Below, piece by piece: positions 13,780-20,153 of a DNA stretch of 64,000 nt. Positions within the stretch are counted from its first letter, which is position 1. The number at the start of each line of letters is the position of its first letter. The translations under genes were made by a program, and so were the position numbers. The notes under the pieces were generated by a model. The model saw only the letters and a list, made by a program, of their open reading frames with translations, was not told where the DNA came from and made no database searches. The DNA is from Polyangiaceae bacterium (GTDB taxonomy: Bacteria > Myxococcota_A > Polyangia > Polyangiales > Polyangiaceae), in assembly GCA_044224495.1 (NCBI GenBank), contig JBGAKG010000027.1, positions 93,521 through 157,520 on the forward strand, read 5' to 3'.

Positions 13780-15720
13780 ATGTCCCGAACTCTCCTCGCA
13801 CCGCTCGCGCTCGCCGCACTGGCCGCGCTCATCGCACTGGGAAGTGGTTGTTCGGCCGCGAGTGAGGACGAGGCAACCTCGGAAGACGCGCTGAACCCTT
13901 GGTCCGACGGCGCCGGCGGTGGCCCAGCCGTATGGGAGACCGACCCCTGCGATGCCCCGCAGGCGTTCGCGAAGTCCCACGGCCTCAACTTCATCAAGGC
14001 GAGCTCGAACGCCCAACCGATCAAGGGGACGGCGGGGCGCGATCTCATCGTCGGCACGGACGGCGACGATCACATCTGGGGCGCGGGCGGCGCCGACGTC
14101 ATCTGCGCCGGCTACGGCGAGGACTGGGTCCACGGCGACGACGGCAACGACTACATCGACGGCGGCGGCGACAACGACCACCTGTACGGCGACGAGGGCG
14201 ACGATCTCGTCCACGGGCGCGGCGGGAGCGACGTGATCTTCGGCGGCAACGGCGCCGACATCCTGCTCGGCGACATCCTCGACGACAAGCTCTACGGCGA
14301 AGCCGGCAACGATCTCCTGATCGGCGGACACGGCACCGACATCATGATGGGCGGGACCGGGAACGACTACCTGCGCGGCGACACCGGCAACGACGCGTTC
14401 GTCGGGGGCCCCGGCAACGACGTCGCCAGCTTCATCACCGCGATGCCCCCCGGCCAAGGGCAGAAGGTGAACGCGCCGCCGAGCGCGATCGACGGCGTGA
14501 AGATCGACTTCACCGACGACTGCAAGGAGACCGGCTTCGGCTTCGACGACCTCCAGCGCACGACGCACGACGGGTGCGCGAACGGCGACGGCGGCAACGA
14601 GCCACTCGACGGGATCGAGGACGTCCTGGGCTCGCCCTACGACGACGTCTTCCTCGGCGGGAAGTCAGGCGTCCTCTTCCGCGGTGGCTTCGGCGACGAT
14701 CACTGCGACGGAAAGCCGTGCGGGAAAGGCGACCCCGCGCCCGCCGGCACGATCTACGTGGGGATGGACGACACGCCGCGCGATCTGGGCCTCGTGGTCC
14801 GCGGCAGCGACCAATCCGACGTGCTCGACATCGCGGCGCAGAACGGGAAGCTCGTGGTGCGCGTGAAGAATGGGCGCCCGATCACGACGAGCGGCGGCTG
14901 CAACGCCTCCGGGGCGACCGTCACGTGCTTCGCGCTCCACACCGTGCGGTTCATCGCCGCGTGGATGGGGAACGGCAACGACGTGCTGAAGCTCGAGAGC
15001 GAAGTCGCCGGCTCCGGCCCGTTCCCGCGCGACATCACCGCGCACGCGAGCGGCGGCGAAGGCGACGACTGGCTCCACGGCGGCAACGAACAGGACGTCT
15101 TCTTCACCGGCCCGCGCGGAGCGGACCACCTGTTCGGCAACGGCGGGAGCGATGCGCTCCTCTCCGAGAGCCGCAAGTGGCCGGGGAAAGACTGCTCGAA
15201 CCTGACGCCACAGCAGAAGCACGCGAACCCGTTCTGCGACGAGAACAAGCCCGACGGCGCGAGCTACGACGACGGCGCCGACGAGCTGCGCGGCGGTCCG
15301 GGCGACGACCAGCTCGTCACGGACTACCCCTGCGGCGGGCACGTGAACTCGGGCGGCGGCGGGAAGGACATCGCCGGGTTCGCGCGGAGCGGGCGCTTCG
15401 ATCTCGTCGCCCAGCTCGCGGGGAAGGCGACGATCGAGAAGGCGTTCCACGGCATGGCGTACAACCCGCAGCTCTGCGGCCTCGGGAAGGCGACGAAGTT
15501 CGAGGACGATCTCGAGATCCTCGAAGCCGCCGACGGCGACGACGAGCTCTGGGGCAACGACGCACCGAACGTGATCTGGGGCCGCGAGGGCGACGATCAC
15601 CTCCACGGCCTCGCCGGCAACGACGTGCTCGAAGGCCTCTTGGGTCAGGACAAAGTCTGGGGCGGCGCCGGCGACGACGTGATCACGGGCGCGGAGGATT
15701 CGTACCCGGACGCGGACTGA
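13780..15720 (+). CDS. RTX-like calcium-binding repeat lipoprotein
   Basis: Lipobox LGSGCSAAS; many GGxGxDxL/I nonapeptide repeats (GTDGDDHIWGAGGADVI, GGGDNDHLYGDEGDDLVHG, etc.). Confidence 0.75.
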   Translation: MSRTLLAPLALAALAALIALGSGCSAASEDEATSEDALNPWSDGAGGGPAVWETDPCDAPQAFAKSHGLNFIKASSNAQPIKGTAGRDLIVGTDGDDHIWGAGGADVICAGYGEDWVHGDDGNDYIDGGGDNDHLYGDEGDDLVHGRGGSDVIFGGNGADILLGDILDDKLYGEAGNDLLIGGHGTDIMMGGTGNDYLRGDTGNDAFVGGPGNDVASFITAMPPGQGQKVNAPPSAIDGVKIDFTDDCKETGFGFDDLQRTTHDGCANGDGGNEPLDGIEDVLGSPYDDVFLGGKSGVLFRGGFGDDHCDGKPCGKGDPAPAGTIYVGMDDTPRDLGLVVRGSDQSDVLDIAAQNGKLVVRVKNGRPITTSGGCNASGATVTCFALHTVRFIAAWMGNGNDVLKLESEVAGSGPFPRDITAHASGGEGDDWLHGGNEQDVFFTGPRGADHLFGNGGSDALLSESRKWPGKDCSNLTPQQKHANPFCDENKPDGASYDDGADELRGGPGDDQLVTDYPCGGHVNSGGGGKDIAGFARSGRFDLVAQLAGKATIEKAFHGMAYNPQLCGLGKATKFEDDLEILEAADGDDELWGNDAPNVIWGREGDDHLHGLAGNDVLEGLLGQDKVWGGAGDDVITGAEDSYPDAD

Positions 15721-18920: not shown

Positions 18921-20153
18921 TCAAGGCAGGCGCAGGTCGAGGAACCGGCCCTTGGCGCGGAACGCCGGCGACGCACCCTCTTGGTACGCGAGGAAGAACA
19001 CGCCCGCCGGATCGACCGTCGTGAGCTCGAGCGGATACGGGGGGACGTCGCTCACGACGACGACCTCGTTCGTCAGCGCACCGGCGCCGTCGAAGCGCGC
19101 GAGCTTGAGCTGGCGATGACCCGCGTCGATCGTCGTGCCCACGATCGCGCCGCCGACCTTCGCGAGCGCGATCGCAGGCGCCCCGAAGCCACTCGCATCG
19201 ACCGGCGTCGCGCCGTTCGCGCTCACGTGCAAAAGTTTCGCGCCCCCCGCCGCGGTGCCGGCCGCGAGCCAGACCTCGGACCCGAGGGCCGCGAGGCTCG
19301 GCGCCAGCACGTCGGGCACGCTGCCGAGCTTCGTCGCGTTGGAGGCCCCGTCGTCGATCCGCACGAGCTCGACGGAGGAGCCGTTTCCCTGGTTGGGCTC
19401 CGACTGCCACGCGACGATCATGGCGCCGGGGATCGTCACCACGTCGGGCACGCTCTGGGTCATGGCGGCGTCGAAGCCGACGTCGATCGAGCCGCCGACC
19501 GGCGCTCCTTCGGCGTCGAGGCGCGCGCCGAAGACCTGGAACGCGGGGGCTTCCGGGACGCCCCACGCTCCGGTCAGCGCGAAGCCGGTCGCGCTCGGTT
19601 GGCTCGGTGCGATCTGGGCCATCCATGCGTTGGCGGTGATCGGCTTTCCGCTCCGCGGCCCGTCGTAGGCGCGCGAGGCACCGCGAGCGACGCCATCGCG
19701 ATCGAAGGTGCGGACGTGGAGCGAGAGGTTGTTCTGTGCCGCGCCGGAGTCCGCGGCCCACGTGACGACGACGCGCTCGCCGCGCACGGCAACCTCGGGG
19801 TCCACGTCGTTGCCGTCGTCGTCGCTCACGCGGATCGGCGCGAACGCGGGTTTGCCGTTGCACCCGAACGCCGCGAGGAAGACGTCGAGCTTGTTCTTGT
19901 CCGCGCCCTTCGGGCGGTCGTAGACGACGTACACGCGGTCGCCGGAGAAGGCGCTCGCCGCGTGGACCTGCGTGTCGGGGCCGCTGGGGTCGATCGCAAA
20001 CGCGGCGTCAGTGAAGGTGGTGCACGCAGCAGCCGCGTCGGGACCCGCGTCCGCCGGCGGCGTCGCGGACGAGCCCGAGCTGCAGGCACAGAGCGCCAGC
20101 GGCGCGAGGGCGAGGGCCGTGAGGAGGCGGTACTTCACGGGCGCGGTGTACAC
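18921..20153 (-). CDS. hypothetical lipoprotein (upstream member of the cytochrome c/GMC operon)
   Basis: Lipobox LALCACSSGS; 410 aa; same strand and 42 bp upstream of the cytochrome c gene. Confidence 0.55.
   Translation of the reverse strand: MYTAPVKYRLLTALALAPLALCACSSGSSATPPADAGPDAAAACTTFTDAAFAIDPSGPDTQVHAASAFSGDRVYVVYDRPKGADKNKLDVFLAAFGCNGKPAFAPIRVSDDDGNDVDPEVAVRGERVVVTWAADSGAAQNNLSLHVRTFDRDGVARGASRAYDGPRSGKPITANAWMAQIAPSQPSATGFALTGAWGVPEAPAFQVFGARLDAEGAPVGGSIDVGFDAAMTQSVPDVVTIPGAMIVAWQSEPNQGNGSSVELVRIDDGASNATKLGSVPDVLAPSLAALGSEVWLAAGTAAGGAKLLHVSANGATPVDASGFGAPAIALAKVGGAIVGTTIDAGHRQLKLARFDGAGALTNEVVVVSDVPPYPLELTTVDPAGVFFLAYQEGASPAFRAKGRFLDLRLP

Follow-up and report, generated by a model that had tools for sequence, protein, structure and literature searches.

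Known systems and the locus examined

The closest described systems are the heterotrimeric flavin adenine dinucleotide (FAD)-dependent glucose dehydrogenase (FAD-GDH) of Burkholderia cepacia (PDB 6A2U) and the fructose dehydrogenase (FDH) of Gluconobacter (PDB 7W2J), in which the gene of a GMC-family flavoprotein lies in a conserved operon with an adjacent multihaem cytochrome c gene, the cytochrome is a trihaem class-I subunit (FdhC/GDH beta), and a small subunit with a twin-arginine translocation (Tat) signal provides for export by hitchhiking. We analysed a stretch of 64,000 nucleotides (the window) from contig JBGAKG010000027.1 of a Polyangiaceae bacterium (assembly GCA_044224495.1), with a G+C content of ~70%, in which a GMC gene is likewise adjacent to a multihaem cytochrome c gene. 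The GMC catalytic fold is shared with FAD-GDH and FDH; however, no Tat-signal small subunit is present at the locus, the cytochrome is a tetrahaem lipoprotein that is not homologous to the trihaem subunits, and the linkage is not conserved (1/57, 0/3, and 0/3 in the three comparisons given below). The reading that we favour, with a probability of roughly 0.6, is that this GMC gene, the cytochrome gene, and a lipoprotein gene in front of them form a recent lineage-specific operon, the products of which work in different compartments and do not constitute a redox complex. The locus itself is probably an ordinary one, i.e. a lineage-specific operon of two unrelated proteins.

An initial annotation of this stretch had likened the arrangement to FAD-dehydrogenase/cytochrome c complexes and had posed a topology puzzle, namely an exported cytochrome beside a flavoprotein without an export signal. 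The analogy holds for the build of the flavoprotein, the predicted iron-sulphur (Fe-S) ligands of which align, and it is closer in this respect than that annotation, which did not mention the cysteine loop at residues 192-202, could tell; it fails, however, for the small subunit, the homology of the cytochrome, and the conservation of the linkage; the puzzle most likely arose because two unrelated neighbours were assumed to work together.

Two other groups of enzymes are relevant to the comparison. In the acetol dehydrogenase (AceDH; GmcA/GmcB) of Methylacidiphilum fumariolicum SolV, Cys187, Cys190, Cys193, and Cys197 bind a near-surface [4Fe-4S]-based cluster at a distance of ~11 Å from the flavin, and electrons are passed on to a c-type cytochrome; FAD is covalently bound, the alpha subunit lacks a signal peptide, and a 14-kDa beta subunit carries the Tat signal and also completes a Cu site (bioRxiv 10.64898/2026.06.11.731722). 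The published motif of GmcA, CDQCGFCFQGC, and the CTHCGDCVAGC of the window protein have an identical CxxCGxCxxGC pattern, and it is on this motif that the likeness was judged; the beta subunit of AceDH is encoded beside alpha, whereas no counterpart was found at the window locus. Among solved structures, the best structural and sequence matches to the window protein are the class I cholesterol oxidases of Streptomyces (ChoA, PDB 1B4V) and Brevibacterium (PDB 1COY), but ChoA has no cysteines at the loop position, and the window protein, unlike ChoA, has no secretion signal. Signal-less, single-subunit, membrane-associated GMC dehydrogenases that feed the respiratory chain from the cytoplasmic side are represented by BetA (choline dehydrogenase) and AlkJ (alkanol dehydrogenase). 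Neither is known to carry an Fe-S loop, and their sequences are only distantly related to the window protein, which scores 24-35 bits with the NCBIfam BetA models against cut-offs of 605-732.

The lipoprotein, cytochrome, and GMC genes are encoded head to tail on the minus strand. Their tight same-strand linkage and the overlap of the GMC start codon with the TGA of the cytochrome gene (GTGA), both reported in the initial annotation, were confirmed, and the features of the locus are as follows.

18921-20153, minus strand: lipoprotein gene, 410 amino acids (aa), with a Sec/signal peptidase II (SPII)-type signal and a lipobox (LALCAC)
17362-18879, minus strand: tetrahaem c-type cytochrome lipoprotein gene, 505 aa, GTG start at 18879, TGA at 17362
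18649-18663, minus strand: haem motif 1, CRRCH, cytochrome residues 73-77, invariant in the cytochrome alignment
18595-18609, minus strand: haem motif 2, CTSCH, cytochrome residues 91-95, invariant
18199-18213, minus strand: haem motif 3, CVACH, cytochrome residues 223-227, within a class-I domain (Pfam PF00034, residues 212-300), invariant
17851-17865, minus strand: haem motif 4, CVHCH, cytochrome residues 339-343, in the invariant block CVHCHMN
17362-17365, minus strand: GTGA junction, GMC start codon on the cytochrome stop codon
15683-17365, minus strand: GMC-family flavoprotein gene, 560 aa, GTG start, without a signal peptide, cholesterol-oxidase-like fold
16760-16792, minus strand: predicted [4Fe-4S]/[3Fe-4S] loop CTHCGDCVAGC, GMC residues C192, C195, C198, and C202

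Neither a second GMC gene nor a second c-type cytochrome was found in the window.

Conservation of the GMC-cytochrome pairing

A scan for the cytochrome in one genome per species yielded 65 loci, which were then searched by tblastn with the window proteins; 57 loci are non-redundant, contain a cytochrome ortholog, and extend for 2 kb or more downstream of it. A GMC homolog occurs anywhere in the locus in only 1 of these 57, i.e. in L004 (88% identity), from a Polyangiaceae metagenome-assembled genome (MAG); the relatives of the window are generally Polyangiaceae/Polyangiales MAGs. Gene tables of other cytochrome orthologs lack a GMC gene, including those of the 75% identical ortholog in L156 and the 66% identical one in L157, as well as those in L002 (64%), L001 (57%), and L003 (50%). 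In 43 loci, in which cytochrome identity is 43-58%, the gene directly downstream on the same strand encodes instead a ~1050-aa protein with a polytopic membrane N-terminus, HEAT repeats, and a C-terminal cyclic nucleoside monophosphate (cNMP)-binding domain (e.g. L003:8001-12625 and L031:8001-12671). The cytochrome and this protein constitute a conserved, uncharacterised two-gene unit in Polyangia, and the window lacks the ~1050-aa partner. This tetrahaem lipoprotein family, together with the membrane/HEAT/cNMP-binding protein that is its conserved neighbour, may repay study more than the GMC-cytochrome pairing to which attention was first drawn.

From the GMC side, adjacency to the cytochrome is limited to a clade with at least 81-88% identity. 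One member, encoding the GMC protein P0122 (84% identity), has the same gene order as the window: Ser/Thr kinase, WD40, lipoprotein, cytochrome, GMC, and hybrid histidine kinase. No cytochrome neighbour is present at any of the three signal-less GMC orthologs from outside this clade, P0127 (64%), P0135 (60%), and P0134 (58%), the GMC genes of which are preceded by genes for a YdjM-like membrane protein, a 330-aa polytopic membrane protein, and a YeeE/YedE-like pair, respectively; the same is true of all three Tat-bearing relatives inspected (P0142, P0154, and P0171). The premise of the initial annotation that the flavoprotein and the cytochrome are partners is therefore not upheld: their adjacency is confined to one narrow clade, is missing at the 75 and 66% identical cytochromes and at the three GMC orthologs, and gives way to another cytochrome neighbour in 43 loci.

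A conserved small or upstream partner of the GMC protein was also considered and rejected. The genes upstream of the GMC orthologs in L151, L152, L153, L154, L155, and L149 are mutually unrelated and encode YdjM-like, 330-aa membrane, EcsC, and 370-aa proteins, small unknowns, and a lipoprotein. Distant (37-41% identity), long, signal-less GMC proteins are encoded near membrane-anchored di-haem proteins in L070 (11653-13521), L139 (2642-6101), L071, and L074, and in L139 a tandem pair of GMC genes comes after two di-haem proteins, with a three-cysteine loop (CDYSGNCMLGC) in one and the four-cysteine loop in the other. These four loci were not accepted as instances of a general GMC-cytochrome partnership, the di-haem proteins being RoxA-like 'di-haem cytochrome c peroxidases' (NF040606), a different family.

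N-terminus of the GMC protein

In L004, L149, and L150, the junction between the cytochrome and GMC genes reads ATGA, i.e. a canonical ATG stands exactly where the window has GTG, which confirms the position of the start. Among the 20 closest orthologs (58-84% identity), 19 have a short, signal-less N-terminus, with 7-37 residues before the FAD fold and with neither a twin-arginine motif nor a hydrophobic stretch, whatever gene lies upstream; the 20th (P0141) is N-terminally truncated. A hydropathy scan of the window protein detected no hydrophobic 19-mer in its N-terminal part. In a six-frame scan of the window, no Tat-type N-terminus was found within 3 kb of the three genes, the only Tat-like N-termini being located at 23622 (the nearest), 34618, and 37281, and there is no room among the three genes for a small-subunit gene. 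The initial annotation was thus correct in reporting a flavoprotein devoid of a Sec or Tat signal and a locus devoid of a Tat-bearing small subunit; an overlooked signal or subunit, which it had allowed for, was looked for at the locus and was not found.

Many of the GMC relatives at 42-53% identity possess a twin-arginine signal of their own. In a rough neighbour-joining (NJ) tree rooted on FAD-GDH alpha, the signal-less GMC proteins (520-568 aa) form a clade nested in mostly Tat-bearing groups, with the Tat-bearing P0145 as its sister; the automatic Tat labels on this tree include false negatives, and assignments were taken from the homolog N-termini. On the simplest reading of this pattern, the Tat signal was lost at the base of the signal-less clade. 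All members of the clade are without a signal, irrespective of whether a cytochrome is adjacent, and most are not beside one, so that the loss appears to predate the GMC-cytochrome juxtaposition. In addition, Cys213 of FAD-GDH, which forms the disulfide to the Tat-signal hitchhiker subunit, corresponds to Thr193 in the window protein. Given the lack of a signal, of an adjacent carrier, and of a carrier-binding cysteine, the most economical location for the GMC protein is the cytoplasm, where it may be membrane-peripheral.

Fold and predicted Fe-S loop of the GMC protein

Membership in the GMC superfamily is clear from the Pfam scores (GMC_oxred_N, 62.9 bits, and GMC_oxred_C, 43 bits, against cut-offs of 23 and 24.6), and the protein has a GxGxxG FAD fold. 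Its AlphaFold2 (AF2) model has a mean predicted local distance difference test (pLDDT) score of 94. Foldseek matched this model best to cholesterol oxidase 1b4v (template modelling (TM) scores 0.69/0.77), followed by the FDH large subunit and FAD-GDH alpha (TM ~0.68-0.73). The catalytic histidine is retained as H476, which corresponds to His447 of ChoA and is also common to FAD-GDH, whereas His105 of FAD-GDH, to which FAD is covalently attached, is replaced by Ile100.

Of the 120 best GMC homologs, 119 have the CxxCGxCxxGC pattern, which is also invariant in a 62-sequence alignment. These homologs (P0121-P0240) include subgroups with their own Tat signal as well as two signal-less size classes, one of ~550 aa and one of ~780 aa, the latter extended by an additional C-terminal region. 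In a profile alignment (hhalign, probability 99.2%), C192, C198, and C202 fall on Cys212, Cys218, and Cys222 of FAD-GDH alpha, the sequence of which was 100% identical over 539 residues to PDB 8HDD_A and 6A2U_B. In FAD-GDH, these three cysteines ligate the 3Fe-4S cluster through which electrons pass from FAD to the cytochrome subunit (PMC6719666). The remaining cysteine of the loop, C195, aligns with Asn215 of FAD-GDH and could be a fourth cluster ligand, its position suggesting a 4Fe-4S cluster in the window protein. Because the loop aligns with the FAD-GDH ligands and the same pattern occurs in AceDH, the loop is likely to bind an Fe-S cluster and the protein is best described, judging from these alignments, as a putative single-subunit FAD/Fe-S dehydrogenase. 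When the isolated cysteine loop was searched against PDB with phmmer, only non-significant matches to ferredoxin-type 4Fe-4S motifs (E values of 0.3 or worse) were obtained, which are no more than suggestive; significance is reached by the profile alignment over the full length of the protein.

Despite its fold, the protein was rejected as a true cholesterol oxidase: it scores 168.5 bits with NCBIfam NF058674 against a cut-off of 850, the loop is absent from that enzyme, and two residues of ChoA are replaced, Asn485 by Thr524 and Glu361 by Leu400 (profile alignment to 1B4V/1B8S), although the assignment of the Glu is alignment-dependent. The Asn that is catalytic in GMC enzymes (ChoA Asn485, FAD-GDH Asn519) is Thr in the window clade, in the motif GVTP (15788-15805, minus strand), and the ~780-aa relatives keep GVNP. 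Several of the CxxCGxCxxGC homologs bear the JGI label 'cholesterol oxidase', probably in error. No link between Fe-S clusters and mycobacterial ChoD was found in the literature, and PMC13083937 was discarded as a GMC/4Fe-4S paper, 'GMC' standing there for author initials and strain names. A metagenome scan with the GMC alignment yielded distant relatives only (at most 41% identity) and none from the close clade.

A large group of GMC proteins annotated as 'cholesterol oxidase' thus carries a ferredoxin-like CxxCGxCxxGC loop at the Fe-S position of direct-electron-transfer dehydrogenases. Because of this position, such loop-bearing proteins probably act as dehydrogenases that have an electron exit built in, and not as oxidases; they would require no small subunit. 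Enzymes of this kind are of interest to biosensor and bioelectrocatalysis research, and the GMC family illustrates that one catalytic scaffold can be used on either side of the membrane.

The tetrahaem cytochrome

The 505-aa cytochrome begins with MNHLRVALLAAMAFAAVAAAC and has the properties of a lipoprotein c-type cytochrome, i.e. a signal peptide with a lipobox cysteine and CxxCH motifs. The four motifs, starting at residues 73, 91, 223, and 339, are all invariant in a 36-sequence alignment, and the lipobox Cys21 is kept in at least 90% of the 36 homologs. The protein is a Sec-exported, lipid-anchored periplasmic tetrahaem protein, in agreement with its initial annotation as an exported lipoprotein with four CxxCH motifs. 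It belongs to a family of ~500-aa proteins with 229 homologs at E values of 0.001 or lower, nearly all from Myxococcota and mainly from Polyangia. Many positions beyond the haem motifs are invariant, and the C-terminus is nearly invariant across the 36 homologs. The AF2 model has a pLDDT of 84 and a predicted TM score (pTM) of 0.82, and its matches to solved structures are limited to the class-I domain around haem 3; no specific kinship to the cytochrome subunits of dehydrogenase complexes was found. Beyond the signal peptide, the hydropathy scan revealed no transmembrane helix, so the cytochrome cannot carry electrons across the membrane.

The public gene call (P0001, 494 aa) starts 11 codons downstream, at an ATG (window 18846-18879, minus strand), which cuts the charged n-region and some of the hydrophobic core off the lipoprotein signal; by comparison with the homologs, the GTG at 18879 fits better. 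The gene just upstream of the cytochrome in L156 (3952-5961) and L157 (3873-5990) codes for a protein of 669-705 aa that contains shoulder and repeat domains of the major vault protein type, an unusual find for bacteria. The 57% identical ortholog in L001/L026 (CACVCF010000223.1, Terasakiella sp. PR1 assembly) lies on a 253-kb contig with 60% G+C that is assigned to an alphaproteobacterium, which could reflect either horizontal transfer or a binning/contamination problem.

Proposed roles of the two proteins and alternative explanations

In the reading that we favour, the GMC protein would act as a single-subunit FAD + Fe-S dehydrogenase, neither an oxidase nor a true cholesterol oxidase. As it is without any export signal, it would remain cytoplasmic, with the inner face of the membrane as a plausible site, and would oxidise a substrate of the alcohol type, with electrons passing from FAD via an Fe-S cluster near the protein surface to a cytoplasmic-side acceptor, e.g. 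a quinone or a soluble carrier. The cytochrome would work separately in the periplasm; across Polyangia its gene mostly stands alone or together with that of the membrane/HEAT/cNMP-binding protein.

Several points weigh against this reading. The characterised Fe-S GMC dehydrogenases (FAD-GDH, FDH, and AceDH) are all periplasmic, with a signal-less catalytic subunit and a c-type cytochrome as the acceptor, so that a signal-less Fe-S GMC protein beside a cytochrome c is just what such a system would be expected to look like. In four contigs of the clade, the 4-nt overlap of start and stop codons is retained, which implies co-transcription and possibly translational coupling. No cytoplasmic acceptor for the GMC protein was identified, the gene context outside the clade was seen for three signal-less GMC orthologs only, and the NJ tree has no support values.

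An indirect coupling of the two proteins is possible, though unlikely. Here, a cytoplasmic or membrane-peripheral GMC protein would reduce the quinone pool and the cytochrome would act further along the same respiratory branch in the periplasm, e.g. as a shuttle that accepts electrons from a quinol oxidoreductase and supplies a terminal oxidase. The operon would then serve co-expression only, with no direct electron transfer between the two proteins. The overlap and same-strand gene order kept within the clade are consistent with this scheme, as are an Fe-S loop for electron exit that has no identified acceptor and the precedent of BetA and AlkJ. However, nothing ties the cytochrome family to respiration specifically, its usual neighbour being the membrane/HEAT/cNMP-binding protein, and a rationale of co-expression is generic and sits poorly with an adjacency that is not conserved.

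More doubtful is a true partnership, in which the GMC protein is exported in folded form, by hitchhiking on an unlinked Tat protein or by an unrecognised route, and passes electrons from its Fe-S cluster to the tetrahaem lipoprotein in the periplasm as a two-component analogue of FAD-GDH, FDH, and AceDH. The alignment of the Fe-S ligands with FAD-GDH alpha, the motif in common with AceDH, the signal-less alpha subunit of which reduces a c-type cytochrome, the conserved start/stop overlap, and the Tat signals of the closest out-of-clade relatives, which make the family ancestrally periplasmic, all argue for it. Yet no Tat small-subunit gene is present in or beside the operon, the hitchhiker-bonding cysteine is a threonine, the cytochrome is unrelated to those of the complexes, and the adjacency arose in one narrow clade after the signal had apparently been lost. 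We consider it improbable, in particular, that the signal-less Fe-S GMC protein is a dedicated donor to the tetrahaem lipoprotein, reaching the periplasm with an unlinked carrier or by an unknown route; if it were, the pair would be a two-component flavo-Fe-S/cytochrome c dehydrogenase recently arisen by gene juxtaposition. For the two solutions offered in the initial annotation, i.e. export by hitchhiking or an unrecognised route and electron transfer across the membrane, no positive evidence was obtained, and the cytochrome has no membrane-spanning segment.

A mis-called GMC start, with the true start further upstream and preceding a signal peptide, is effectively excluded: the frame does remain open upstream for 54 codons, as far as a GTG at 17527, but this extension is highly charged, has no hydrophobic core, and overlies the conserved cytochrome C-terminus, and relatives have their ATG exactly at the proposed start, the short signal-less N-termini of 19 of the 20 closest orthologs including some from other gene contexts.

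Flanking genes and probable origin of the GMC-kinase block

The genes flanking the locus that bear on its history are as follows.

11829-13625, minus strand: hybrid histidine kinase/response regulator gene with a multi-pass membrane N-terminus
13750-15720, plus strand: RTX-repeat (calcium-binding) protein gene, between the GMC and kinase genes
7084-9054: OPT transporter gene
2217-5234: gene for a 1058-aa protein

Genes for the OPT transporter and the 1058-aa protein are found close to the cytochrome gene in L002, L156, and L157, and both are kept in the window. Because the window retains these ancestral neighbours, the GMC-kinase block looks like an insertion, made in one lineage, between the cytochrome and OPT genes.

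The lipoprotein gene at the head of the operon encodes a 410-aa protein with the N-terminus ...KYRLLTALALAPLALCACSS, for which Pfam and NCBIfam searches gave no match and in which the hydropathy scan found no hydrophobic segment other than the signal peptide. Homologs were detected only in the closest relatives, L004 (67%) and L149 (76%). The 41-nt spacer between the lipoprotein and cytochrome genes holds a weak hairpin and a T-run.

The 3' end of the RTX gene overlaps that of the GMC gene by 38 nt on opposite strands. In L149 and L150, the RTX gene is absent and the kinase gene lies directly 3' of the GMC gene, on the same strand and after a gap of 32-34 nt. Since the kinase gene directly follows the GMC gene in these two relatives, the RTX gene looks like a recent insertion between the two, specific to this window.

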